Positions 2,649-37,142 are shown, counted from the first letter of the stretch. The stretch: 60,791 nt of DNA from an uncultured Gammaproteobacteria bacterium (GCA_964540995.1 CAZIOU010000005.1:1-60791), one strand, 5' to 3'. Notes: generated by a model not told the origin, from the letters alone. Numbers and translations are program-made.

Positions 2649-4349
2649 TTATTGAATATCCTTCTCATCTAACTTTCTCTCCTTCACTCTCTGCTTGGCC
2701 TCTGCGTCACCCCTGCTCCAGAAATAATCATTGTGATCCACAAACTTCATTGCTTCCGCGCGCCAACTGCGATTCTTCTCAATTTCCTTATGCATCAGCT
2801 GACAGACCTTACGATACTGCGGATGGCCCTGTGGCGTCGTGCGTAGCTCCAGTAAATGATAAGCTTCGCGTTCATTAAAGGCTAAGATCCAACGGACTTT
2901 GTGACCGTGCAAAGTAATATACGAAGCTTCTAGGGGGAAATCTCTGGTCACGGTCTGATACAAGGCTTTGGCACGTTCATGACAGGCCAACACCTTGTCT
3001 TCGAAACCAGCCAACCTGATATCTTCGGGTACGATGAAACCCAGCATCGGACTGAAGCGCTGACGTAACTGACTGGTCATACGATGCCGCTCGAGATCTT
3101 TGTAAGTACCAAAGTCAGTTATCAGATCGAAAGTATAACGATAACCACTTTCCAAAGCTCGGTACGGTCTATCACGTCGGGTCTGACGTTCACCAATATA
3201 AGTCTGACGAATTTTTTCTTTTAATTCCGGAGTTAGTCTGCGTACCACCTTAATCAACTGCCGCAAAGAGTGGTGGCAATATTCATACAGCATCATGGCT
3301 ATCATTAGGACGTCTTCTTCATCACGTGTTAATTCACGCAATTGATCGGCCGAGATCATTGTCTGCTCCATGACCACAGTGTTAATCTTCTCCGCAATAG
3401 CGGATTCGCCACGATCAAGCAAGACAACCGGATCTTCGTCTTTGGCGTCGGTTGTGGCTAATAATTCAGAAGTCAAAGCGTTCATTGCCCGATGGACCAC
3501 TTGACGATACTCATTGGGTTTGGAACGTTTGACATAATGTGGGATGACTTTATCCAACTCTTGTTTGGCCTGCTGTGCTATGCTGGCCGCTTCTTGCAAC
3601 GTTGATGTCATTAGATGGGACAGTACACCCTGATAGAAACGACCATTACCAAACATACCAACATTAGTCTTAGTCGCCAGCGGAAGTAAGCTGCGCAAGG
3701 AATCACAAGCCTTGGTGCGAATATCCGAATTGTAAGTTATAGTGAAGGCTTTCTGATCTTTCTCCTCTTTCAGCTCGGCTAATTTCTGCTTCTGACCAGT
3801 ACCGAGGACATCATATTCCGCTTCTTCGATCGGCTTCAATTTCTGATAGTAGGCCTTCATCGGCTCCATCAGATCGCAATAAGTCTGGAAAATGAAATCC
3901 ATAGTCGCCATGTATTCGCTGGCGTGAGGCGAAGCCATGATGCGCGGATCACGATAATAGCGGAAATTGCCTTGGTCATCGCGTTGATCGTAGAAAACAT
4001 AGCGCGTCGATTGCTCAATGGGCGATCCGCCGATACGCCTGTCCTCTATCTCTTTGGAGATTAAGACAGAAATATTTTCGAAAGAAACATGCGCACCCTC
4101 TAATTCTCCGACTGAATCATCGCCATAAGCCACCAAGACACGTTCAATCAATTGCGAAGCTCGCTGCACATCCAGCATACCTTCTTTGATAAACTCTTTG
4201 AGCAACACCTCCCGGAAACCGCCTTTGGCTCGACTGTAGCGAGCATAAATAGAACCGACAATACCTTCTAGATTGGTGACACAGAAGACATCACCGTCCG
4301 GATCGGTAACATATTTTTTTAGGATTTCTTTTTCTTCAGGGGTAAACAT
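2649..4349 (-). CDS. thyX: FAD-dependent thymidylate synthase, long two-domain ThyX-like form (566 aa)
   Basis: The C-terminal half carries ERHRMTSQ (ThyX RHRxxS signature region). The N-terminal half has a degenerate YARYSR copy. The size recalls long chlamydial-type ThyX. The gene sits between dut and TK-TMPK. Confidence 0.6.
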   Translation of the reverse strand: MFTPEEKEILKKYVTDPDGDVFCVTNLEGIVGSIYARYSRAKGGFREVLLKEFIKEGMLDVQRASQLIERVLVAYGDDSVGELEGAHVSFENISVLISKEIEDRRIGGSPIEQSTRYVFYDQRDDQGNFRYYRDPRIMASPHASEYMATMDFIFQTYCDLMEPMKAYYQKLKPIEEAEYDVLGTGQKQKLAELKEEKDQKAFTITYNSDIRTKACDSLRSLLPLATKTNVGMFGNGRFYQGVLSHLMTSTLQEAASIAQQAKQELDKVIPHYVKRSKPNEYRQVVHRAMNALTSELLATTDAKDEDPVVLLDRGESAIAEKINTVVMEQTMISADQLRELTRDEEDVLMIAMMLYEYCHHSLRQLIKVVRRLTPELKEKIRQTYIGERQTRRDRPYRALESGYRYTFDLITDFGTYKDLERHRMTSQLRQRFSPMLGFIVPEDIRLAGFEDKVLACHERAKALYQTVTRDFPLEASYITLHGHKVRWILAFNEREAYHLLELRTTPQGHPQYRKVCQLMHKEIEKNRSWRAEAMKFVDHNDYFWSRGDAEAKQRVKERKLDEKDIQ

Positions 4350-15311: not shown

Positions 15312-15782
15312 CTAAGGTCTTCCGTATTTCTTCACCAACCAAGCCGAAACATAGCCTCGGTATTTACGCCTCGTTGCTAGCGGCATATTACGATAAGCAC
15401 CGATCTTGCCCCGACAGCTAACTGTACCGCACTGACATTTCATACGCCAACGCGGATGATCTTCAGTCATCTCATAATCCCACGTAATCTCCTCCCCGAC
15501 CTCAATATCGCGCATCGCCACTACTTGGAATAATTTCTTGATACCACAATTGGGTTCGCAGGAATGATTGATCAGACGCGCCACTCCCAGACAGTCTCGC
15601 CAGCGACGCGGCGCGAATTGGATGGTGTGATGATAGAGATCGTGATTCCAATGCGGATACTCCCATTCATAGATCGGCCCATCATACTCGGCTACCACTT
15701 CACCTTTCTTGATTTTACGGGAAACGAAAACTCCCCTGCCTTTGCCTCGGGAAGTTTGTACGTATATCTTCTTACTATCCAT
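15312..15782 (-). CDS. SET-domain protein (putative protein-lysine methyltransferase)
   Basis: RLINHSCEPNC, GEEITWDY and a post-SET Cys cluster CQCGTVSCRG. The start overlaps the pheT stop (TAATG). Confidence 0.8.
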   Translation of the reverse strand: MDSKKIYVQTSRGKGRGVFVSRKIKKGEVVAEYDGPIYEWEYPHWNHDLYHHTIQFAPRRWRDCLGVARLINHSCEPNCGIKKLFQVVAMRDIEVGEEITWDYEMTEDHPRWRMKCQCGTVSCRGKIGAYRNMPLATRRKYRGYVSAWLVKKYGRP

Positions 15783-25625: not shown

Positions 25626-26288
25626 TTATTCAAGCTCCTGATGCAACTGTTTAAAGTTATCGACGATAAAATCTGCACCCGCCTGCTGTAGGACGGCAGC
25701 AGAAAATGAATTGGTGATACCGATTGCGAGACAGCCAGCGGCTTTGGCTGACAAGATACCATTATCAGAATCCTCTAGGACCATAGCTTCGACGGGAGTC
25801 ACACCTAACTTCTGCATCGTGACGATATAGGGCTCGGGATTGGGCTTACCTTGAGAAACTTGATCACCAGTCACAACAATATCAAAATAGGATTCAAGAT
25901 TATGAATAGAGAAAATTAATTCCTGAATACCCTTACTGCTAGATGTGGTGAGGGCAACCAGAGGGAACCGAGCTCGGATAAATTGCAGAAAATCTATCGC
26001 TCCAGCAAATAATGGAGTCTGCTGTAGAGAAGATTTAACCAATTGTCTTTTCTCCTCAATCAAATCATCAACATTGAGGGAACTAGTGGCGGCAAAATTA
26101 CTCAGAATGTAACTAAAAATGGCTTGGTTGGTTTTACCTTTGAAATGATCCCATTCTGAAGCTGGGATATCGATCCCATGATTACGACAAATATCCTGCT
26201 CTATCTTCACGTACAGTGCTTCCGAATCTACCAATACTCCATCCATATCAAAGATAAAGGCTTTCTTATTTACTAGTAGTTTATTCAT
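25626..26288 (-). CDS. HAD-superfamily hydrolase (beta-phosphoglucomutase-like subfamily)
   Basis: FIFDMDGVLVDSE, LTTSS, KPNPEPY and EDSDNG. The track start at 26327 is TTG; the ATG is at 26288. Confidence 0.8.
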   Translation of the reverse strand: MNKLLVNKKAFIFDMDGVLVDSEALYVKIEQDICRNHGIDIPASEWDHFKGKTNQAIFSYILSNFAATSSLNVDDLIEEKRQLVKSSLQQTPLFAGAIDFLQFIRARFPLVALTTSSSKGIQELIFSIHNLESYFDIVVTGDQVSQGKPNPEPYIVTMQKLGVTPVEAMVLEDSDNGILSAKAAGCLAIGITNSFSAAVLQQAGADFIVDNFKQLHQELE

Positions 26289-26463
26289 TGGGCTATTGTA
26301 ACCACTGTTATCTATTATTGCAAACAAAAAAGCAGGCTCCGAATTATTAGAATAATAATTGGATAAACCTGCTTTACGCTATAGCCTATTGGCTATAGGT
26401 GAGCCTCTTCGACAATTAGTATACTATTGTCGAAATTACTGAGCATTCTGGAAAGTCTGATCT

Positions 26464-26913
26464 TTAGACGTAGTAAATCGGACTGCCGTCTTCCATACAC
26501 GCGACTAATGCGCGACGCTGTAGACGGAAATTGGTACAACCTTGGTACAAGGCCCATAGTACATCCCGCGCCCAACCGCCTGGAAAATATACACGATTTG
26601 ACGGTTGATTCAGAAAGATACGATGATCCCAGTTATGTTGGTACCTGCACCATGTCAGGAAACCAACTTCATCATGTCGCAGATAGGAAAGTGGAAACCT
26701 CCTATTCATTACCGGCACACCTTGGATAGCAAAGCGACGAATCAAATCTCTACGAGACCAATGCAATTTGAATGTAGCATTGATCAGCCGCAACAGATCA
26801 TCAGCATCACACCATGCCCACCGTCGCCAACTCTGATGCCTATCAAAACTCTTTTCGGACACCCTGATTTCGGGAAGTCTGCTGATTGGCGGTCTGACAT
26901 ATTGAAACGACAT
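26464..26913 (-). CDS. Hypothetical Trp/Arg-rich protein, 149 aa (orphan)
   Basis: GGAGGGG lies 3 nt upstream of the ATG, with its own TTGACA promoter. No motif recognised. Confidence 0.6.
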   Translation of the reverse strand: MSFQYVRPPISRLPEIRVSEKSFDRHQSWRRWAWCDADDLLRLINATFKLHWSRRDLIRRFAIQGVPVMNRRFPLSYLRHDEVGFLTWCRYQHNWDHRIFLNQPSNRVYFPGGWARDVLWALYQGCTNFRLQRRALVACMEDGSPIYYV

Positions 26914-26970
26914 AACCCCTCCACAAAATGCTATTTACAAAGAACCGGCCACCGCTTTGATGGTAATTAT

Positions 26971-26999
26971 TATATAACATATAATTAATATTGTGTCAA
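26971..26999 (-). promoter_or_regulatory. Sigma70-type promoter TTGACA-17-TATATA (TATAAT at 19)
   Basis: -35 at 26999-26994 and -10 at 26976-26971. It overlaps the T-tract of the preceding terminator. Confidence 0.6.
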
Positions 27000-27011
27000 T
27001 AGTAAAGCCCC

Positions 27012-27251
27012 TTAATGAAAAGGGGCTCGGCAGAAGTCATCCTCCTCCGGCGGTTCCGGTAAAGGCGGTTGGACAGAAGTAGAAACCTCACACTGAGGAG
27101 ACTCATCTTGGAAATAAACTCCGCAATGATGTCGTTCGGCATGTGGCTGACACAACGACAACTTACACTGCTCACAGGTCAGACAAGCCTTGGTGAGGCA
27201 CCCACAGGAAGCCTCACAGGTTTCGTTGGAAGCATAGGCCAAGAAACTCAT
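27012..27251 (-). CDS. Small Cys/His-rich protein, 79 aa
   Basis: CEASCGC..CLTCEQCKLSLCQPHAERHHCG, then a Pro/Glu-rich tail. GGGAGG lies upstream. The ATG overlaps the stop of the upstream paralog (ATGA). Confidence 0.6.
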   Translation of the reverse strand: MSFLAYASNETCEASCGCLTKACLTCEQCKLSLCQPHAERHHCGVYFQDESPQCEVSTSVQPPLPEPPEEDDFCRAPFH

Positions 27252-27433
27252 GGTACCTCCCTTATGGTAGGCTGAGAAATGACGCCGGGTCGTTTCTGGT
27301 GCAATTTGGCGACACAGCCGTGATTATCTTGATGATGACGGCAATGCCAGTCCTGACAATCCGGACATTTCTCAAACGGTCTATTCAAACAAGGTCCGAC
27401 TTCACATTTCTCTGGCTGATCAGCTGGAGGCAT
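27248..27433 (-). CDS. Small Cys/His-rich protein, 61 aa (paralog-like to 27012-27251)
   Basis: MPPADQPEKCEVGPC..CPDCQDWHCRHHQDNHGC. GAGGAG lies 6 nt upstream of the ATG at 27433. The track extension to 27508 has no SD. Confidence 0.55.
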   Translation of the reverse strand: MPPADQPEKCEVGPCLNRPFEKCPDCQDWHCRHHQDNHGCVAKLHQKRPGVISQPTIREVP

Positions 27434-27491
27434 CCGCGTCTCCTCGAGGAAGGGATAACATTTACGATATAGAAGGAGCAAAAACAATATC

Positions 27492-27519
27492 ACTCTACAC
27501 CTGTACAACTGATTGTCAA
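27492..27519 (-). promoter_or_regulatory. Candidate promoter TTGACA-16-TAGAGT
   Basis: -35 at 27519-27514 and -10 at 27497-27492, directly after two terminator hairpins. Confidence 0.45.
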
Positions 27520-27532
27520 TACAGTGTGGTTT

Positions 27533-27605
27533 ACCCCGTTGGATAACTTCGTATCCAACGGGGTAAAAAAAGCCCGACTCCTTTCAAAGTCGGGCTAAAA
27601 TTTTT
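27533..27605. terminator. Two tandem stem-loops (second one bidirectional)
   Basis: accccgttggata/tatccaacggggt (27533-27564). Then A7-agcccgact-cctttcaa-agtcgggct-aaaattttt (27564-27605). Confidence 0.75.
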
Positions 27606-27882
27606 AGGTGAAGAAGCTCTGCAGCAGTCCGGGTACAGTCGTCCCCACCCTATTTAGGGTACACCTCCCGGACAATGGCCGTGGCCTTGATCACCTCCTC
27701 TCGGGGCGGTTAGCGAAGCGTGATGGAATCGCAGACAGCACCGAGAGAAGGTCCAAAAAGCTGATCATAAGCCATAACTCCTCCATTGCTTGGGGTATGA
27801 TGCGAGACTAAAGAAACAGGACCTCTTTCACCTCCCTCCTGTGGTAAGATCAAAAATCATAAGTACTCTAACATAGGTTTAG
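27606..27882 (-). other. Structured non-coding region (candidate sRNA or leader) with only tiny ORFs
   Basis: It is bounded by terminators on both sides. There is an 11-bp stem ccttctctcgg/ccgagaggagg, a 7-bp stem gtccggg/cccggac enclosing accct-aaat-agggt, and ends ggtgaa.../...ttcacc. A 21-codon ORF (27710-27775, MAYDQLFGPSLGAVCDSITLR) follows GGAGGAG. Confidence 0.3.
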
Positions 27883-27941
27883 CAGAAAAAAAAGAGCGGC
27901 CGTCGAGCTTCCACCAAAGGCGGATAAGCAGCTCGACGGCC
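27883..27941 (-). terminator. Strong intrinsic terminator after the 351-aa gene
   Basis: Minus strand: ggccgtcgagct...agctcgacggcc (12-bp stem), followed by gctcttttttttc. Confidence 0.85.
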
Positions 27942-27948
27942 GTATAAT

Positions 27949-29004
27949 TCACAAAACTCTACGTGCAGTTGCTTGGATGACCTCCAAGGGTTCCAGTCTG
28001 CGGGTATGGATGTCTACCACACTACGTATCTGACGTAAGTACGGCCAAAGCTCCGACACATGATCGCGGATGGCTGCTGCAGCCTGATGATGAAGTCCGG
28101 AAACTTTATCGACTTTGAAAGGACGATCGTCACCGCTCGAATACGGTGCTGAAGTCATAAGAACGATGTCTTCAGCCTTGATCCGACCATCCAGCAGATT
28201 ATGCCAGACGATGCGACCAGCCGTGATAACCGCCTGCAGATAATCTGGGTCGAAGTGACCGACGATCAGCGCCTTATTGGGCAAATGCAGCCAATCATAA
28301 CCACGACCAACAGCGATCACGGATTCGCAATGCCTAAGTTGTTCGATAGTGCGACCAGAACAACGAGTCTCCTGCACTCGATCGGCGTTACGGACCAGAA
28401 CTTCAGTCGCGTCGCGAACAACATCGCTAGGCATATCCGCATGATGACGGAGCAACCAATTGGCAATAAGATCACGATCAGTCCCTACGTCTGCCATATC
28501 CAGATCATCGTGGCCATCTTCACTCGCCAGAACCAGACAATCCCAGTCAGTATCGAGACCAACCAAGATAGCGTAGTAATGCGGATGAGCCAACACGCGA
28601 CGACATTGATGTGTCAGCTGTAGCGCCGAAGAACGTGCCTGATCCAAGTTATGCTTATGACCAGCACAACCAAGCGAGTCGTTGTCACTGCGTGAATAAT
28701 GATAGGTCACAAATAGCAGTCCACGCTTATTCCGGCATCTGCCATAGCGTTGCCACTCGGCCAAAGATGCATTGAAAATTGGCCAACGAGTATCAAACAT
28801 GCCACCGATATTTCTCCATGGCTGAATGATTCCCAGTGGTGTGTTGGTAGCGATCGGTAAATGCAGTCGTCCATCCATACACTTCAGAGCACCTAGTTCT
28901 GTTGGATGACGCGACCGATACTCCCTGCGCCGCTCCTGCTGACTCAGAAATTCCCTTGACTGCTTGGCATTGAGATCCATCAGGAATTCGATTCCCGTCG
29001 GCAT
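27949..29004 (-). CDS. Hypothetical protein with beta-carbonic-anhydrase-like CxDxR...H-x10-C pattern (CsoSCA-like), paralog 1
   Basis: KC42MD44GR46, TYH102YSRSDNDSLGC113. It is about half identical by eye to the neighbouring ORF. It has its own promoter, GGGGAGG directly upstream and its own terminator. The coding call is solid; the function is a hypothesis. Confidence 0.5.
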   Translation of the reverse strand: MPTGIEFLMDLNAKQSREFLSQQERRREYRSRHPTELGALKCMDGRLHLPIATNTPLGIIQPWRNIGGMFDTRWPIFNASLAEWQRYGRCRNKRGLLFVTYHYSRSDNDSLGCAGHKHNLDQARSSALQLTHQCRRVLAHPHYYAILVGLDTDWDCLVLASEDGHDDLDMADVGTDRDLIANWLLRHHADMPSDVVRDATEVLVRNADRVQETRCSGRTIEQLRHCESVIAVGRGYDWLHLPNKALIVGHFDPDYLQAVITAGRIVWHNLLDGRIKAEDIVLMTSAPYSSGDDRPFKVDKVSGLHHQAAAAIRDHVSELWPYLRQIRSVVDIHTRRLEPLEVIQATARRVL

Positions 29005-29065
29005 AGCCTCCCCGCCCGTGGTATAGGTTAAAAAAGCAACTACTGTAAAAGAACGACAAGAAAAA

Positions 29066-29093
29066 AGTATACTCCCCTGACATAAAAAGTCAA
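29066..29093 (-). promoter_or_regulatory. Sigma70-type promoter TTGACT-16-TATACT
   Basis: -35 at 29093-29088 (inside the 3' arm of the preceding terminator) and -10 at 29071-29066. Confidence 0.55.
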
Positions 29094-29116
29094 AGCCTCA
29101 ATTTGAGACTTTGACT
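29088..29116 (-). terminator. Intrinsic terminator ending the atp-operon transcript
   Basis: Minus strand: agtcaaagtctcaa-a-ttgaggctttgact, followed by ttttat. Confidence 0.75.
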
Positions 29117-29137
29117 AAGTATATAATCAACTATCAA

Positions 29138-30178
29138 TCAGGCCTTCCCCGAATGCAACACTTCCATTTCCCGTGTATGGATATTAACCACCGCGGTCAT
29201 ATGTTGTAGATAGGGCAAAATATCCGGAACTTGTTGACGGATGACTTCCATGGCGTAACGGTGTAGGAATTCTGACTTGGCTTGCTTAAACGGTTTATCC
29301 AGTGCTCCCCGGTAAGGCGATGAAGCCAAGAGGACGATATCTTCCTCATTAATTCTACCCGCCTTAAGATTAGACAAAATAATACCAGCAGCCACGGCCA
29401 CTGCCTGATCAAAATCCGGATCAAATGGACCGATGATAAGAGCCTTGTTGATGACATGAAGCCAGTCAAATCCACGTCCGATAGCCAAGACTGACTCACG
29501 GTGTTCAACGTCGCCTAATGTTCGATCAACTTGTTTCATCTCTGCTACATGCTCAATGTTGCCTTTGATTAACGGGATGAAATCCAAAACCGTTCGCTCT
29601 GGCATATCGGGATAGAGACGATGTAACAAGCTGAAAAGATGTTCTTCATTGGTATCGGTGATAGTAGAGACATCAACAATCTCATTATTCTCACCATGAA
29701 GGATGATCGCGTCCAGATCCGTCTCAAAACCAATTTGAATCGTATAGGCAGTTGGCCGCCCTAAAATACCATCACACTGCTTCTTAAGTTCGGCCGTATA
29801 AGCAATAGACGCTTCGGTGTCATAATTGAATCCCCGACAACCGCGATGTTTCTCACCACGTGAATAGTGGTAGGTAACCAACAGCAAAGCGTTACGTCCC
29901 TTACCGATAGCATAATCGCGCCATTCTTGAAGTGCTGGGCTAAAAGCTGGCCAACCAATATCAAACTTGCCGCCGACATTGCGCCATGGCTGGATAATAC
30001 CCAGCGGAGTCTTGGTCGCTACCGGCAGATGGATGCGACCATCCATACATTTCAGTGTGCCGATCTCTGTCGGGTGCTGGGCGCGATAAATCCGCCGAGC
30101 GGCTGCTGTACCTGGGTTACTAAAAATACCCGAATGCTCTTTATTCAAATCAATAAGCTGTTGGATGCCTGTACTCAT
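29138..30178 (-). CDS. Hypothetical protein with beta-carbonic-anhydrase-like CxDxR...H-x9-C pattern (CsoSCA-like), paralog 2
   Basis: KC44MD46GR48, TYH104YSRGEKHRGC114. ATG at 30178 (MSTGIQQLIDLN aligns with MPTGIEFLMDLN of paralog 1), 16 nt after the atpC stop, no SD, AT-richer. Confidence 0.5.
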   Translation of the reverse strand: MSTGIQQLIDLNKEHSGIFSNPGTAAARRIYRAQHPTEIGTLKCMDGRIHLPVATKTPLGIIQPWRNVGGKFDIGWPAFSPALQEWRDYAIGKGRNALLLVTYHYSRGEKHRGCRGFNYDTEASIAYTAELKKQCDGILGRPTAYTIQIGFETDLDAIILHGENNEIVDVSTITDTNEEHLFSLLHRLYPDMPERTVLDFIPLIKGNIEHVAEMKQVDRTLGDVEHRESVLAIGRGFDWLHVINKALIIGPFDPDFDQAVAVAAGIILSNLKAGRINEEDIVLLASSPYRGALDKPFKQAKSEFLHRYAMEVIRQQVPDILPYLQHMTAVVNIHTREMEVLHSGKA

Positions 30179-30194
30179 AATACTTATTAAATAA

Positions 30195-30626
30195 TTATTC
30201 AGTTCCTTTGGTATGGACGCCGCGCTCCTTGTAGCGACGAGCAACCTTAATCTTGGAAGTCTCTCGCTCTATGAGTGCGCGTAACATTTCATAGTTATGA
30301 TCATGGGTACCCGTTGTCGCCAATGTTTCTTCGGCTCGGCGAATAGCTTCTTGTACTTTGTGTTCGTCAATCTCTGAAGCCATCTGTCCTGCATCGGCCA
30401 ATACTACCAAGCCATCCGGTACGATCTCGACGAAACCACCTTCAATCGCTATGAAGATTTCGTCATGAGCCGAGGTCACGATAATCTCACCATGACTCAA
30501 GACACTTACTAAGGGAATGTGGTGCGACAAAATAGTTACCTGACCCAATTGAGTCGGCAACGTGACTTGATTGACTTCACCTTCGTGAAGCACCCGTTCG
30601 GGAGTTACAATTTTTAATTTCAACAT
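30195..30626 (-). CDS. atpC: F1 ATP synthase epsilon subunit
   Basis: MLKLKIVTPERVLHEGEV..VTLPT..G.VTILSHH is typical epsilon. It follows atpD. Confidence 0.9.
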   Translation of the reverse strand: MLKLKIVTPERVLHEGEVNQVTLPTQLGQVTILSHHIPLVSVLSHGEIIVTSAHDEIFIAIEGGFVEIVPDGLVVLADAGQMASEIDEHKVQEAIRRAEETLATTGTHDHNYEMLRALIERETSKIKVARRYKERGVHTKGTE

Positions 30627-30635
30627 ATCTTTAAT

Positions 30636-30725
30636 CTGTCTTTGCGAGGAGTCTTGAGCTTAAGCGAATGACGACGAAGCAATCCCATTGAGATTGCTTC
30701 CCCCGCCGCGGGGTCGCAATGACAG
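30636..30725 (+). mobile_element. MITE-like repeat, copy 3 (short 90-bp form) inside the atp operon
   Basis: CTGTCTTTGCGAGG ... gaagcaatc-ccattga-gattgcttc ... ccccgccgcgggGTCGCAATGACAG. It fills most of the atpD-atpC spacer. Confidence 0.75.
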
Positions 30726-30728
30726 TCG

Positions 30729-32111
<1,383 letters not shown>

Positions 32112-32160
32112 TTATAAGTTGTAATTTGAAAATTTAAAATAAATCGTACGATTATAAATA

Positions 32161-33072
32161 TTATCTGCTTAATCCTTCAGCACCAGCAGAAATCTCCGCA
32201 ATCTCGGCCGTGATACCCGCTTGTCTGACGCGGTTGAAAGCCAGTGTCAATTCATCGATCATCTCACTGGCCGAATCACTGGCATTGCGCATGGCCATCA
32301 TACGAGCGGAATGTTCTGACGCTTCTGACTCCAGCACCATCTGATACATCTGAACTTCCACTAGGCGTAACAATGCAGCGTCCAACACCTGATCCATTGA
32401 CGGCTCAAAGAGATATTCCGAGAAATGAAAGGCTGGCACATCAGTAGTAATATCATGAGCAGCGTGCGCCAAGTACCGACTGGGCTTGACCAGAGGTAAT
32501 AAATGTCGAACCCGAACTTCCTGCTTGAGACTAGAATGAAAATGAGTATAGACGACAGCGATCTCATCGTAACGCTGCTTAATAAAACCTTGGATCAAAT
32601 GTTGTGACAGAGGGATAATATCAGCTACTTCGTCTGTGATGTCATTCTTGGGATAATCAGCCATCACCGACATCTTCACCGCCGCTAGACCTTGAGCTGC
32701 ACGTTTACCAAAGGTAATAAGATCAACGGCAATATCAGGCTGGTCCCAACCTTCCTTCTTCAGAAGCTTACGCACTTTATCCACTACAGCAATATTGTAG
32801 CCACCGCACAATCCACGGTTACTTCCGATTAGGAGAACTCCCACCTTCTTAACAGGACGCTCCTGGAGCAAAGGATGTGCTTCGGTATCAACACGCTTAG
32901 CCAGATTCAAAACCAATTTCCAAGCCAAATCCGAATACTGACGAGACATTAGGACTCGTTCAACGGCACGGCGCATCTTACTAGCCGAAACCAGCTCCAT
33001 GGCTTTGGTAATTTTCTTGGTGCTGGCGACTGATTTGATGCGTCGCTTGATATCTCCGGTTAGTTGGGGCAT
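32161..33072 (-). CDS. atpG: F1 ATP synthase gamma subunit
   Basis: IKRRIKSV..T.KITKAMELVSASKMRRA at the N-terminus and ITAEIAEI..GAE at the C-terminus. Confidence 0.93.
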   Translation of the reverse strand: MPQLTGDIKRRIKSVASTKKITKAMELVSASKMRRAVERVLMSRQYSDLAWKLVLNLAKRVDTEAHPLLQERPVKKVGVLLIGSNRGLCGGYNIAVVDKVRKLLKKEGWDQPDIAVDLITFGKRAAQGLAAVKMSVMADYPKNDITDEVADIIPLSQHLIQGFIKQRYDEIAVVYTHFHSSLKQEVRVRHLLPLVKPSRYLAHAAHDITTDVPAFHFSEYLFEPSMDQVLDAALLRLVEVQMYQMVLESEASEHSARMMAMRNASDSASEMIDELTLAFNRVRQAGITAEIAEISAGAEGLSR

Positions 33073-33088
33073 CTTTTTATAGTGACAA

Positions 33089-33139
33089 GTATAATGTATG
33101 AAGTATTAGCGTGGGTTCATTATACTTCCTACTTTATAC
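33089..33139. repeat. GTATAAAGTAG-word hairpin in the atpA-atpG spacer
   Basis: gtataatgtatgaagtat (33089-33106) pairs with atacttcctactttatac (33122-33139) at 16 of 18 positions. The right arm overlaps the atpA stop codon. Confidence 0.65.
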
Positions 33140-34637
33140 TAACTACTTCTTCAATAGCTTTCTTCAACTTCTCCTCATTATCCGCTGATAACTCTCCTGT
33201 CTTAGCAATGTCAGCTAATAAGTCAGGGTAATTGGCATCAAGATGTTCATAGAAGTTAGTTTCGAATTGCTTCAGCTGATCGACTGCTATTTGGTCCAAT
33301 AAACCATTAACCGCAGCGTAGAGAATCGTCACCTGATAATGAACTGCGATCGGTCGATATTGACCTTGTTTCAATAACTCGACGATACGCTTACCTCGGT
33401 TTAAACGGCTCTGTGTCTCTTCATCCAGATCTGATCCAAATTGCGCGAAGCCTTCTAACTCTCGGTATTGCGCCATATCCAATTTGAGACGACCAGCCAC
33501 TTTCTTCATGGCTTTGATCTGCGCAGCTGATCCGACACGAGAAACAGAAATACCGACGTTAACCGCTGGACGGAAACCCTGATAGAAAAGATCGGCTTCC
33601 AAGAAGATCTGACCATCAGTAATGGAAATAACATTGGTAGGAATATAAGCTGAGATATCGCCAGCCTGCGTCTCAATAATAGGCAGAGCGGTTAATGATC
33701 CGCCGCCATTATCAGTATTCAAGCGAGCAGAGCGCTCCAACAAACGAGAGTGTAAGTAAAAAATATCTCCTGGGTAAGCTTCCCGTCCTGGTGGGCGTCG
33801 GAGCAACAACGAGATTTGGCGGTAAGCAACAGCTTGTTTGGATAAATCATCGTACACAATCAATACGTCTTTACCTTGGTCCATGAAGTATTCGGCCATA
33901 GCACAGCCCGCATAGGGAGCGATAAATGACATAGCAGCTGGATCAGAGGCTCCGGCTACTACTACCGTGGTATAGCTCATAGCACCAGCTTCTTCTAGAC
34001 GGGCAATAATCTGAGCCACTTTGGATTCCTTCTGACTAATAGCTACATAGATACACAATACACCGCTATCTTTCTGATTGAGAATAGTATCGATAGCAAT
34101 CGCTGTCTTACCAGTCTGACGATCACCAATGATCAGCTCGCGCTGTCCGCGACCGATCGGGATCATAGCGTCAATTGATTTGATACCTGTCTGCAGTGGC
34201 ACCGTGACTGACTGACGAGTAATAACTCCAGGAGCAACTTTCTCTACGGGATTAAACCGCTTGGTTTTGAGAGCACCTTTACCATCCACCGGTTGCCCAA
34301 GAGCATTGACGACGCGACCAATAACTTCTTCGCCCACCGGAACTTCTAATACTCGGCCAGTACAGCGCACCGTATCGCCTTCACGTAATTGCAAATAGTC
34401 GCCCAAGATCATGACACCGATGACGTCTTCTTCTAAGTTCAAGACAACACCTTCAATCTTCTCACCGGAGCCGCTTTCTAACTCTACCATTTCCATAGCC
34501 AAAGCTTTGGACAAACCAGAAACCGTAGCGATGCCGTCTCCTACTTCAATAATATGTCCTACGCGTTCTTCGCTAGGAGCGAATTCCAAACCCTCAATTT
34601 TCTTCTGTAAATGTTTGATCAGATAATCGTGAGACAT
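33129..34637 (-). CDS. atpA: F1 ATP synthase alpha subunit
   Basis: GDRQTGKTA Walker [30 protein letters not shown] and ITDGQIFL. Confidence 0.97.
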
Positions 34638-34641
34638 ACTA

Positions 34642-35043
34642 TTATTCGTTTAATAATTGTTGTTGTAATGAAGCTAAGCGATGATTGATAGTCGCATCCA
34701 ATTGCTGGTCACCATACATAAGCTTAAATCCTCCGATGATGCTAGAATCAATCACTTCTTCTAGGTCTACTGGCTTACCTAAATGTTTGTGACACCAGCG
34801 ACTAATCGTAGCTAACATCTCTGGTCCGACTGGATGACGGGTAATAACTTTGACCAAGACTTTACCTTCAGCCTCTCGAACTGCCTGTTCCAGAGCTAAG
34901 CGTATCTTGGGCCAGCGACTGATCAGGCGTTGACTCTTAAGCCACAAGAAAGCTGACTCGATAACCGCATCAAGTGCTTTACCTTTCTTATCTTCGGTAG
35001 CACCGATGATAGCTTGGGCAATAGTTTTATCGGCGATTTTCAT
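34642..35043 (-). CDS. atpH: F1 ATP synthase delta subunit (short, 133 aa)
   Basis: Its position between atpF and atpA and the C-terminal ..[22 protein letters not shown] matching the delta C-terminal motif. It overlaps atpF by 17 nt. Confidence 0.75.
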
Positions 35044-35542
35044 GTGATTTGAGTGAAGTTACTTGTTCAGAAATAAAGGTACGATCTTTGTGCGTGTCAA
35101 TCTTTTGATTCAACAGTTTAGCACTGGCAGTAACTACCAGCTCAATCATCTCTTCCCGCGCATCAGCAACAAGTTTATCCTTCTCTACCTGAATCTGTTG
35201 CTTAGCATCAGCCACGATCTGCTGGGTCTTGGCTTCAGTTTCTTTCATAATAGCCGAGCGCTTCAACTCTGCCTGCTGACGAGCTTCGGCCAAAATTTCA
35301 GCCGCTTCCTTCTTGCTGGCTGCTAATTGTCGCTTGGTCTGTTCGGCGGTCTCTTGTATTGTCCGTTCGATAACTTTGGCCTGATCCAAACTCTGGCCGA
35401 TGATCTTACCTCGTTCGGCCATGACTTTGGTCAGAGGCTTCAAGGCGAAACGATAAATAACGAAGAATACAATAGCAAAATTGATCAGCTGCGCTAGCAT
35501 CAAGGTCCAATCAATATGAAATGTCTTAATTAATTCTTCCAT
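35027..35542 (-). CDS. atpF: Fo ATP synthase b subunit
   Basis: One N-terminal TM helix followed by a long charged helix (AEILAEARQQAE..). Confidence 0.85.
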   Translation of the reverse strand: MEELIKTFHIDWTLMLAQLINFAIVFFVIYRFALKPLTKVMAERGKIIGQSLDQAKVIERTIQETAEQTKRQLAASKKEAAEILAEARQQAELKRSAIMKETEAKTQQIVADAKQQIQVEKDKLVADAREEMIELVVTASAKLLNQKIDTHKDRTFISEQVTSLKSHENRR

Positions 35543-35609
35543 TGCTCATTATGATTAATAATTCATTCCCGTATTCTTTCGAAAAGAATACGGAGAGAAA
35601 TATCAATGA

Positions 35610-35858
<249 letters not shown>

Positions 35859-35903
35859 TTATTGTTTTGTTTAACGTCCCCGGGGAAACTACGTTTGGTT
35901 AAT

Positions 35904-35981
35904 AAATAGTTACTAGATTAGTAACTTATTATTAGTCACTAGGTTAGAAATTCTTCCCTAATAACTACTAACAAATAACTA
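35904..35981. repeat. AATAAC-word imperfect hairpin in the atpB-atpE spacer
   Basis: tagttactagattagtaacttattattag ... ccctaataactactaacaaataacta. The 26-nt right arm (35956-35981) matches 60067-60092 at 24 of 26 positions and overlaps the atpB stop. Confidence 0.65.
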
Positions 35982-36818
35982 ATGACTGCCTTCTTCCGAA
36001 TGATCCTGCGCTGCGATAGTAAAATACACCAAGGTCAAAACAGAAAAGATTAAGGCCTGTATCAAACCAACCATGACTTCCAAGAACATGAAGGGAATCG
36101 GCAAGATGAAAGCAAATAAAGCCGCCATAGCCGCCAATAATACTTCACCGGCGAAGACGTTACCAAATAACCGGAAGGATAGCGAAGCTACTTTGGCGAA
36201 CTCACCGATAATTTCGATTAGTCCGACGAAGAATTGAATCGGGTTGACGATGATAGCTGCTTTATTGTGTCGCATATCAGCTGGTATCGCCATTAACGTT
36301 TTGACATTGATAAATTTATTAAAATACTTCCAGCCGCCCACAATCATCACACCGAAAACATTGGCGGCGATGATAGAAAATAAACTCAATGCCAAGGTTG
36401 TATTGACGTCAGCCGTACCACCACGGAGAAGAGGAACGAACACACTATGGCCTTCTGCCTGCTCGATCCAACCGATAGAACCCACTCCTGGCAACAGGCC
36501 TAACCAGTTATTGATAATGATGAAAATAAAAACAGCAAAAACTAAAGGAAATATTTTTACTGTTATGGCTCGGTCATTGGTCACCGAATCAGCTAGATTC
36601 ATAGCGGCATCGATGATCGCTTCTGCGGTAGCTTGCAGTTTGCCCGGTATGGCTTTTGCCTTCTTACCGATGACAAGACTCAATACGACGATGATTAGAA
36701 CTGCTATCCAGCTGGTGAGCAATGAATTGGTGATCGTTAGCGGACCAACATGCGCAATAGGTTCGGCAAAAATAGTTGACTCGTGACTAACTTCAGTTGT
36801 AACCGGCGTAGCTTCCAT
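35979..36818 (-). CDS. atpB: Fo ATP synthase a subunit
   Basis: Polytopic membrane protein with LSFRLFGNVFAGEVL (conserved Arg helix). Confidence 0.92.
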   Translation of the reverse strand: MEATPVTTEVSHESTIFAEPIAHVGPLTITNSLLTSWIAVLIIVVLSLVIGKKAKAIPGKLQATAEAIIDAAMNLADSVTNDRAITVKIFPLVFAVFIFIIINNWLGLLPGVGSIGWIEQAEGHSVFVPLLRGGTADVNTTLALSLFSIIAANVFGVMIVGGWKYFNKFINVKTLMAIPADMRHNKAAIIVNPIQFFVGLIEIIGEFAKVASLSFRLFGNVFAGEVLLAAMAALFAFILPIPFMFLEVMVGLIQALIFSVLTLVYFTIAAQDHSEEGSH

Positions 36819-36829
36819 GATAATTCAAA

Positions 36830-37057
36830 TTATTGATAACGTTTGGCTAAGCGTAACAGACCGATAACCGTCCCCACGAAAGCCAACAACATACAAACGA
36901 GCAACCACAGGGGCTGACTCGAGAAACGCTGATCTAACCATCGACCCAACCACAATCCTGCCAAGGCCGGACCAACGATCCAACCGGTAGCTTGCGCGCC
37001 GATGGCCAAAGCCAGTGTCTGCCACTTTTTGTCCTTAGGATCTCCCTTTTGGTTCAT
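36830..37057 (-). CDS. AtpZ/AtpI-like small membrane protein preceding atpB
   Basis: 75 aa, two TM helices, G.Q..G.I.GP...G...G..LD pattern, first gene of the operon. Confidence 0.6.
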   Translation of the reverse strand: MNQKGDPKDKKWQTLALAIGAQATGWIVGPALAGLWLGRWLDQRFSSQPLWLLVCMLLAFVGTVIGLLRLAKRYQ

Positions 37058-37113: not shown

Positions 37114-37142
37114 AGTATAGAGGAATTTAGCAAAAGGGTCAA
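37114..37142 (-). promoter_or_regulatory. atp operon promoter TTGACC-17-TATACT
   Basis: -35 at 37142-37137 and -10 at 37119-37114, about 55 nt upstream of the atpZ-like start. Confidence 0.6.

Follow-up and report, generated by a model that had tools for sequence, protein, structure and literature searches.

Two tandem genes in a 60.8-kb stretch of DNA (CAZIOU010000005.1; its full length is referred to here as the window, and positions are counted from its first letter) encode members of the CsoSCA superfamily of carbonic anhydrases (CAs), and one of them lies directly behind a complete operon for the F1Fo ATP synthase. The identity of its PheT places the host in the Patescibacteria, or candidate phyla radiation (CPR), with Candidatus Komeilibacteria as the closest named lineage (82%). 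The two products, termed paralog 1 and paralog 2, fit the compact variant of a non-carboxysomal family known as CsoSCA2. The reading that we favour, with a probability of about 0.5, is that they are cytosolic CsoSCA2-type zinc carbonic anhydrases that equilibrate CO2, bicarbonate and protons for proton-translocating machinery.

Identification of the two proteins as CsoSCA homologues

An initial annotation, made from the sequence alone, had described two homologous proteins of 351 and 346 amino acids (aa), and the two are indeed 45% identical over their whole length (BLASTP, E 9e-107). It had also pointed to a C-x-D-x-R motif followed at a distance by a His and a Cys, and each residue was found where it had been placed: C42/D44/R46, H102 and C113 (H-x10-C) in paralog 1, which also carries an H225/E227 pair, and C44/D46/R48, H104 and C114 (H-x9-C) in paralog 2. 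A phmmer search of PDB sequences with paralog 1 returned CsoSCA entries only, with 2FGY at E 1.8e-5. In the alignment to this chain, whose numbering is the native one plus 28 because of a 28-residue tag, C42/D44/R46/H102/C113 correspond to CsoSCA C173/D175/R177/H242/C253 and H225/E227 to H397/E399; these are the seven active-site residues listed, in H. neapolitanus numbering, in Table 2 of PMC9164163. The zinc ligands C173/H242/C253 and the D175/R177 dyad, which the annotation had named for CsoSCA, are therefore matched residue by residue. All seven positions are invariant across an alignment of 48 family sequences, a degree of conservation far beyond chance.

The annotation had proposed that its assignment be checked against CsoSCA and beta-CA profiles and by comparing AlphaFold models with CsoSCA structures; the profile scores and the overall fold came out in its favour. 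The Pfam model of the CsoSCA catalytic domain (PF20686, CsoSCA_cat) matches paralog 1 at 38.1 bits (E 1.5e-9), above the gathering cut-off of 21.5, while the canonical beta-CA model goes unmatched; paralog 2 alone scores 14.5 bits, under that cut-off. A profile built from the 48 family members retrieved CsoSCA structures from the PDB (8THM, 8.6e-10; 2FGY, 6.6e-9) and, marginally, the canonical beta-CA 3LAS (E 0.21) at the C-x-D-x-R region. AlphaFold2 models were obtained with a predicted local distance difference test score of 93.1 and a predicted template-modelling (TM) score of 0.90 for paralog 1, and of 92.9 and 0.89 for paralog 2. When these models were compared with the PDB by Foldseek, the top five matches of each were CsoSCA crystal or cryo-EM structures (E 1e-15 to 1e-13; TM-scores on the query, TMq, of 0.69-0.71 for paralog 1 and 0.71-0.74 for paralog 2). 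The matches extend over 340-400 columns, so that the shared fold comprises the catalytic and the degenerate C-terminal domain. The next match was the two-domain red-algal beta-CA 1DDZ, followed by weak matches to canonical beta-CAs. Both proteins are thus confirmed as members of the CsoSCA superfamily.

Non-carboxysomal homologues of CsoSCA were named "CsoSCA2" in 2022 by Sutter, Kerfeld, Scott and colleagues (PMC9164163), who described a compact form some 350 aa long: its N-terminus has two helices and about 40 aa, its loops are shortened, a defunct domain follows the active one, and every catalytic residue is kept. The window proteins fit this compact variant: they are non-carboxysomal, their loops are shortened, their catalytic residues are retained, and in the AlphaFold models the catalytic domain begins after some 35 residues that form two helices (H4-21, H23-32). 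The initial description of the proteins as CsoSCA minus its N-terminal domain was right in that the long domain is missing, but it overlooked the two-helix N-terminus that is kept and the shorter loops. The non-carboxysomal copy of Nitrosomonas oligotropha is one of the CsoSCA2 examples of PMC9164163, and loci of this species (L010 and L020; 41% identity, E 2e-79) fall in the same tree as the window proteins.

Since the family had already been named, a fact that the annotation missed, there is nothing new in identifying the enzyme, and some family members already bear the database name "carboxysome shell carbonic anhydrase". The family is rather small: among 1.84 billion clusters at 50% identity, a threshold of E <= 1e-3 gives 567 representatives and one of E <= 1e-30 gives 294, and at least 585 loci were found in one-genome-per-species contigs. 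The survey in PMC9164163 used isolate genomes only, so that CPR members and genomic context fell outside its coverage, and it posed the physiological role of CsoSCA2 as an explicit open question. The sole later mention that was found treats CsoSCA2 as a phylogenetic outgroup. Literature searches for CsoSCA or CsoSCA2 in Patescibacteria/CPR, for CA together with an ATP synthase operon, and for DabA together with Nitrosomonas, which did not extend to subscription journals, returned no description of linkage; neither the conserved linkage of CsoSCA2 with F1Fo genes in CPR nor that with DabA/antiporter operons in ammonia oxidisers appears to have been described. Compared with the compact CsoSCA2 of PMC9164163, the window genes differ in forming a tandem duplicate of which one member is a cistron of an ATP synthase operon, while the other evolves fast and shows a return to the H-x10-C spacing of CsoSCA.

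Distinction from other carbonic anhydrases

The carboxysomal enzyme itself (H. neapolitanus 2FGY/9G4T; Cyanobium 8THM) shares with the window proteins its fold (TM about 0.7 over both domains), a Cys-His-Cys zinc site with long His-Cys spacing, the Asp-Arg dyad and the equivalents of H397/E399, at an identity of 16-20%. An assignment to carboxysomal CsoSCA proper was nonetheless rejected on four grounds. Scores against the NCBIfam equivalog TIGR02701 are 35.9 bits for paralog 1 and 17.6 bits for paralog 2, against a cut-off of 241. The N-terminal domain of CsoSCA, about 144 aa long and containing the RuBisCO-binding region, is lacking. CsoSCA is encoded in a carboxysome locus (csoS2, csoS1, csoS4, cbbLS), whereas the window genes lie outside any such locus; in agreement with the initial annotation, which had seen no carboxysome genes nearby, none for bacterial microcompartment shell proteins, CsoS2 or RuBisCO were found in the window. 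Finally, the Cys283/Cys284 redox switch is replaced in paralog 1 by Y143/Y144. In CsoSCA this vicinal pair, conserved in about 80% of sequences, activates the enzyme only under oxidising conditions (bioRxiv 10.64898/2026.04.02.716132). A Cys-Cys pair is present in none of the 48 family sequences, some of which hold only the two zinc-ligand cysteines, and the N-terminus of neither paralog contains a hydrophobic stretch. The absence of both features makes cytosolic activity of the two proteins plausible.

Canonical beta-CAs (PF00484, e.g. E. coli Can, 3LAS) have in common with the window proteins the C-x-D-x-R motif and Zn(Cys)2(His) chemistry. Membership was rejected because PF00484 is unmatched even at E <= 10 and because the spacing is H-x9/10-C rather than H-x2-C; the window proteins moreover have two domains, one with a dead site, and give weak fold matches to the canonical enzymes. 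DabA (PF10070, a protein of about 800-1100 aa) was likewise rejected, as the window proteins do not match its profile. The vectorial CO2-hydrating DAB complexes (DabA/DabB) are similar in the genetic link between a beta-CA-like protein and membrane machinery that translocates cations; however, DabA has no detectable sequence homology to CsoSCA2, which is small and soluble, and its partner is a NuoL-like subunit, whereas that of CsoSCA2 in CPR is F1Fo.

Association with the ATP synthase operon

A complete F1Fo operon, atpZ(I)-B-E-F-H-A-G-D-C, occupies positions 30195-37057 upstream of both paralogs and on the same strand (Table 1). Exactly 16 nt separate the atpC stop codon from the ATG of paralog 2, and this junction contains no hairpin. 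The end of the transcript comprising the atp genes and paralog 2 was placed at 29083-29116 on account of the hairpin and T-run there. Taken together, these signals support co-transcription of paralog 2 with the atp operon as its terminal cistron. An alternative TTG start of the paralog 2 reading frame (to 30244) would overlap atpC and is unlikely, since alignments with homologues begin at the ATG.

Separate transcription of paralog 1 is supported by a promoter-like site and a terminator of its own. This gene is preceded by GGAGG, a Shine-Dalgarno (SD)-like motif ending 2 nt before the ATG at 29004, and its GC content is 0.510, compared with 0.472 for paralog 2 and 0.463 for the window. These sequence signals agree with the initial account of paralog 1 as a GC-richer, SD-bearing and separately transcribed copy. 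Paralog 2 had been described as a terminal, SD-less cistron; the 16-nt gap and the missing SD are as stated, but the lack of an SD was rejected as a special trait of this gene, for it is usual in the genome. An SD-like motif precedes only 10 of the 59 open reading frames (ORFs) of the window and is missing from the other 49; among the atp genes only an AGGA before atpE was found. With SD motifs so rare, it is the SD of paralog 1 that is the unusual feature.

Table 1. Positions of the CsoSCA2-type genes, the ATP synthase genes and associated signals in the window
Feature	Position	Strand	Basis or remark
Paralog 1, 351 aa, ATG start	27949..29004	-	ORF; divergent, lineage-specific CsoSCA2-type carbonic anhydrase
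Paralog 2, 346 aa, ATG start	29138..30178	-	ORF; typical CsoSCA2-type carbonic anhydrase, predicted last atp cistron
atpC (F1 epsilon subunit)	30195..30626	-	ORF; Pfam ATP-synt_DE_N on L080 orthologue
atpD	30729-32099	-	ORF; Pfam family on collinear L080/L081 orthologues
atpG	32161-33072	-	ORF; Pfam family on collinear L080/L081 orthologues
atpA	33129-34637	-	ORF; Pfam family on collinear L080/L081 orthologues
atpH	34642-35043	-	ORF; Pfam family on collinear L080/L081 orthologues
atpF	35027-35542	-	ORF; Pfam family on collinear L080/L081 orthologues
atpE	35610-35822	-	ORF; Pfam family on collinear L080/L081 orthologues
atpB	35979-36818	-	ORF; Pfam family on collinear L080/L081 orthologues
atpZ/I	36830-37057	-	ORF; Pfam family on collinear L080/L081 orthologues
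Promoter-like site TTGACC-17-TATACT upstream of atpZ, candidate atp operon promoter	37114..37142	-	Consensus match only
Terminator-like hairpin (13-bp stem) and T-run after paralog 2	29083..29116	-	dG -20.1 kcal/mol, z -4.6, 0/200 shuffles as stable
Promoter-like site TTGACT-16-TATACT for paralog 1	29066..29093	-	Overlaps descending arm of paralog 2 terminator
Strong terminator hairpin and U8 after paralog 1	27886..27942	-	dG -35.4 kcal/mol, z -7.4

Gene neighbourhoods in relatives

The 79 best genome loci (numbered with an L), each with 10 kb on either side, were examined by tblastn with the atp proteins of the window; 55 are of CPR type and 24 are proteobacterial. The annotation had suggested a survey of atp linkage across CPR genomes, and in 24 of the 55 CPR-type loci the CsoSCA2 gene indeed lies beside atp genes on the same strand. 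In 18 of these it follows F1 genes (atpC, or atpD in L046), with gaps mostly of 21-146 nt. Four others have it upstream of atpB; the gap in L073 is just 87 nt, making the CA gene the first of the operon. In the remaining two it comes after atpH in split atpB-E-F-H-CA operons, at distances of 28 and 33 nt. These split operons lie at L052:72-3090 and L056:3379-6552; in L056 no F1 genes were found within 10 kb downstream, so that the CA there stays with the Fo/stator half. In a neighbour-joining tree of 80 CA sequences the atp-linked genes are scattered over most CPR clades, which suggests that the linkage is ancient and has since been kept, reshuffled and, in some cases, lost.

None of the 24 proteobacterial loci shows atp linkage. 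Twenty of them, from Nitrosomonadaceae and relatives, have CsoSCA2 as the last gene of an antiporter/DabA operon with the order Proton_antipo_M - DabA (PF10070, 800 bits) - NuoL-like - Proton_antipo_M - Proton_antipo_M - CsoSCA2; L019, with 1.9 kb of upstream sequence, shows an antiporter-like match only. In Nitrosomonas oligotropha Nm75 (L010:502-11035) six genes on one strand encode proteins of 490, 1103 (DabA), 522 (NuoL-like), 539, 501 and 357 aa (CsoSCA2), and a similar operon is seen in 19 more loci (L004-L006, L008, L009, L011-L014, L016-L021, L024-L026, L031). Altogether, the CA gene is clustered with ion-translocating membrane machinery in 44 of the 79 loci, in two very different bacterial groups.

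Several further observations were made in these neighbourhoods. In Moraniibacteriota (L054:10001-13700 and L055:180-8609) CsoSCA2 stands immediately before a module resembling complex I or group-4 [NiFe]-hydrogenase, with NuoB-, NuoL-, NuoH-, NuoM- and NuoCD/large-subunit-like genes; in L054 it lies between the atp operon and this module. The spacing between atpC and the CA gene is 16-21 nt in the window and in the more distant L001. The counterpart of the window gap at 30179-30194 in L080 (7714-8478; also in L081-L083) contains an additional ORF with a sub-threshold PsbP_2 match only. A gene for PF20393 (Pro_CA_2, a putative carbonic anhydrase) occurs two genes upstream of CsoSCA2 on a Saccharibacteria-labelled contig (L007:8681-9298), and one further locus among the scanned neighbours also has a PF20393 gene. 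In longer homologues (P0297, P0282, P0342 and others) the CsoSCA_cat domain alone was detected, with no domain fusions.

In the neighbour-joining tree, which carries no support values, the DAB-linked genes of Nitrosomonadaceae form one monophyletic group inside the CPR sequences, a hint that genes have passed horizontally between CPR and ammonia oxidisers. Some taxonomic labels need care. Records of metagenome-assembled genomes (MAGs) labelled "uncultured Gammaproteobacteria" (L001-L003, L027, L035, L037, L064, L074) have an AtpD 75-91% identical to that of the CPR window and a CPR-type CsoSCA2, and so these labels look unreliable. L022 is labelled Saccharibacteria, and its CA is nearly identical to that of the Nitrosomonas MAG L016.

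Divergence and selection of the two paralogs

Of the 84 highly conserved columns (>=90%) in the family alignment, paralog 2 deviates at 4 and is a typical family member, whereas paralog 1 deviates at 17, the most of the 48 sequences (family median 2); it is also alone among them in its H-x10-C spacing. Paralog 2 is 84% identical to atpC-adjacent orthologues in L001 and L002. In the tree paralog 1 adjoins the paralog 2 clade on a long branch, and it was found only in the close relatives L080-L083. The ratio of non-synonymous to synonymous substitution rates (dN/dS) against close relatives is 0.043 for paralog 1 (measured on a 95%-identical orthologue), 0.025 for paralog 2 and 0.023-0.069 for the atp genes. 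A decaying pseudogene or relaxed copy was rejected for paralog 1 on this value, despite the 17 deviations. Such strong purifying selection indicates a functional gene, and paralog 1 is probably a specialised, lineage-specific and fast-diverged duplicate. Tandem duplication has recurred independently in L027, in the Nitrosomonas locus L021 and in L028. A paralog 1/paralog 2 heteromer is conceivable by analogy with CsoSCA-type enzymes, which work as dimers or higher oligomers.

Synonymous divergence (dS) between the window (27949-36818) and L081 is very uneven: it is 0.044 in atpA, lies at 0.35-0.86 in the other atp genes and reaches 1.26 in paralog 2, which suggests recombination or mosaic ancestry inside the operon. 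Paralog 1 is also one of four SD-bearing genes, out of the ten in the window, that cluster at 25626-29004, together with a 79-aa Cys-rich ORF, a 149-aa ORF and a HAD-family hydrolase. The collinear L080-L083 have neither the hydrolase nor the 149-aa ORF, so that this segment looks like an insertion. The 79-aa ORF (27012-27251) and an overlapping one of 86 aa (27248-27508), both on the minus strand, contain many Cys and His residues and show C-x2-C and C-x-H patterns like those of zinc fingers; the former is preceded by GGGAGG and the latter by a promoter-like site, and ORFs of similar size occur at the same place in L080 and L083.

Proposed role in proton-translocating systems

In the model that we favour, both genes would encode cytosolic zinc-dependent enzymes of the compact CsoSCA2 branch of the CsoSCA (epsilon, or deeply divergent beta) class. 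Each polypeptide would consist of the short two-helix N-terminus, a catalytic beta-CA domain with the Cys-His-Cys zinc site and the Asp-Arg dyad, and a degenerate beta-CA-like C-terminal domain supplying the conserved His/Glu pair, and would catalyse CO2 + H2O <-> HCO3- + H+ at the predicted Zn(Cys)2(His) site. Paralog 2 would be made from the final cistron of the F1Fo transcript and paralog 1 from its own promoter. By keeping the cytoplasmic CO2/bicarbonate/proton system in fast equilibrium at the inner face of proton-translocating complexes, the enzymes may ensure that proton flux through F1Fo is neither limited by cytoplasmic pH nor disruptive to it. To our knowledge CPR bacteria generally have no respiratory chains, and in fermentative members F1Fo probably often runs as an ATP-driven proton pump; CPR metabolism thus makes a role in pH or proton-motive-force control beside such a pump attractive. 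A comparable pairing is experimentally established in osteoclasts, renal intercalated cells and parietal cells, where carbonic anhydrase II and H+-ATPases of the V or P type work together. As in the role proposed here, a cytosolic CA supplies or buffers protons for an ATP-driven pump, but carbonic anhydrase II is an unrelated alpha-class enzyme with a eukaryotic pump as its partner, whereas here the putative partner is a bacterial F-type complex and the association is drawn from gene order. The coupling of CO2/bicarbonate/proton handling to the proton-motive machinery that the annotation had proposed is made more credible by the recurrence of same-strand atp linkage in CPR and of DabA/antiporter linkage in Nitrosomonadaceae.

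A further step, which we regard as speculative and rather doubtful, would be to see in CsoSCA2 a dedicated accessory of ion-translocating membrane complexes and not a free housekeeping enzyme. CsoSCA2 and F1Fo of CPR would then form a functional, possibly physical, module in which the enzyme supplies or sinks protons by interconverting CO2 and bicarbonate, as a bacterial analogue of the pairing in acid-secreting animal cells, with the split atpBEFH-CA operons hinting at the Fo/stator side; the Nitrosomonadaceae enzyme would serve an enlarged DAB-type complex, and the tandem paralogs might act as a heterodimer tuning activity.

Several points weigh against the favoured equilibrating role at the proton-translocating machinery. 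As its authors stress, CsoSCA2 is unstudied and no member has been assayed (PMC9164163). Replacement of the regulatory Cys pair by Ala abolishes the activity of true CsoSCA (bioRxiv 10.64898/2026.04.02.716132), and the lack of this pair is consequently no guarantee of an active enzyme. In the closest relatives (L080-L083) an extra 254-aa ORF and about 350 nt lie between atpC and paralog 2, so that tight coupling to atpC is not obligatory. The CA gene is not atp-linked in 31 of the 55 CPR-type loci, where its neighbours are heterogeneous; in 7 of these one flank is shorter than 2.5 kb, and no conserved alternative neighbour was found among the 31 (PD-(D/E)XK/UvrD-type genes in a few, a PF20393 putative CA in two). 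The linkage counts are, besides, inflated by shared ancestry. For the standard model of CO2 concentration, a soluble CA beside a DAB pump is a paradox, since free CA in the cytosol would short-circuit the build-up of bicarbonate.

The main alternative, which we think less likely, is that the two proteins are ordinary housekeeping cytosolic CAs for bicarbonate supply or CO2 removal. Their position beside the atp genes would then reflect no more than synteny handed down and the convenience, for a streamlined genome, of being expressed constitutively together. The evidence on enzyme identity is equally compatible with such a function, as are the unlinked majority of CPR-type loci and the ORF inserted behind atpC in the closest relatives; the downstream synteny (UvrD/AddA-like, DciA, PheST) is also kept in L075, an indication that long-range synteny persists without obvious functional meaning. 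Against this stands the survival of the linkage through three rearrangements, including the split operons, across most CPR clades, and the fact that an independent lineage ties CsoSCA2 to DabA and antiporter-like subunits, another ion-translocating complex. As far as we know, moreover, most of the biosynthetic pathways that consume bicarbonate, and on account of which E. coli cannot do without a CA, are missing from CPR, which weakens the usual housekeeping rationale. The alteration of 17 near-invariant positions in paralog 1 under strong purifying selection, a pattern typical of neofunctionalisation, raises the question of whether one of the proteins, or each of them, serves less as a catalyst than as a subunit that senses CO2/bicarbonate or regulates, for instance, the ATP synthase, or whether paralog 1 has been neofunctionalised, perhaps as a heterodimer partner. 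The independent recurrence of tandem duplicates points the same way, as does the conformational and allosteric regulation of CsoSCA itself (bioRxiv 10.64898/2026.04.02.716132), but the zinc ligands, Asp-Arg dyad and His/Glu pair are kept in both paralogs and in all 48 homologues; this argues for conserved catalysis and leaves a regulatory role improbable. Least probable of all is a supply of CO2 to a form II/III or III-like RuBisCO of CPR nucleotide salvage, a carboxysome-free echo of the CsoSCA-RuBisCO pairing. CsoSCA proper does partner RuBisCO, and some CPR encode RuBisCO; however, six-frame translations of the window and of the 79 loci (+/-10 kb) contain no match to G-x-[DN]-F-x-K-x-D-E, which we take to be a signature of the large subunit, so that RuBisCO linkage was rejected, the RuBisCO-binding N-terminal region of CsoSCA is absent here, and Calvin-cycle and carboxysome genes are absent from the window.

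For a widespread family that is experimentally unstudied, the recurrent operonic linkage provides a concrete, testable hypothesis for its role. It bears on how CPR bacteria use the ATP synthase and manage pH and proton-motive force without respiratory chains, and it suggests a possible descent of the carboxysomal enzyme from a family whose original ties were to membrane bioenergetics.

Other features of the window

Scans of the window for tRNAs and Rfam families returned no matches. The remaining genes are housekeeping genes, among them those for nucleotide metabolism, L1/L11/NusG, GyrB, PheST, AddA-like helicase-nucleases, aminoacyl-tRNA synthetases, ClpB, TGT and RecO. Three further genes encode a fused thymidine kinase-thymidylate kinase of 407 aa (1354-2577), a double-length ThyX of 566 aa with two Thy1 stretches (2649-4349), and a SET-domain protein of 156 aa (15312-15782) adjoining pheT.

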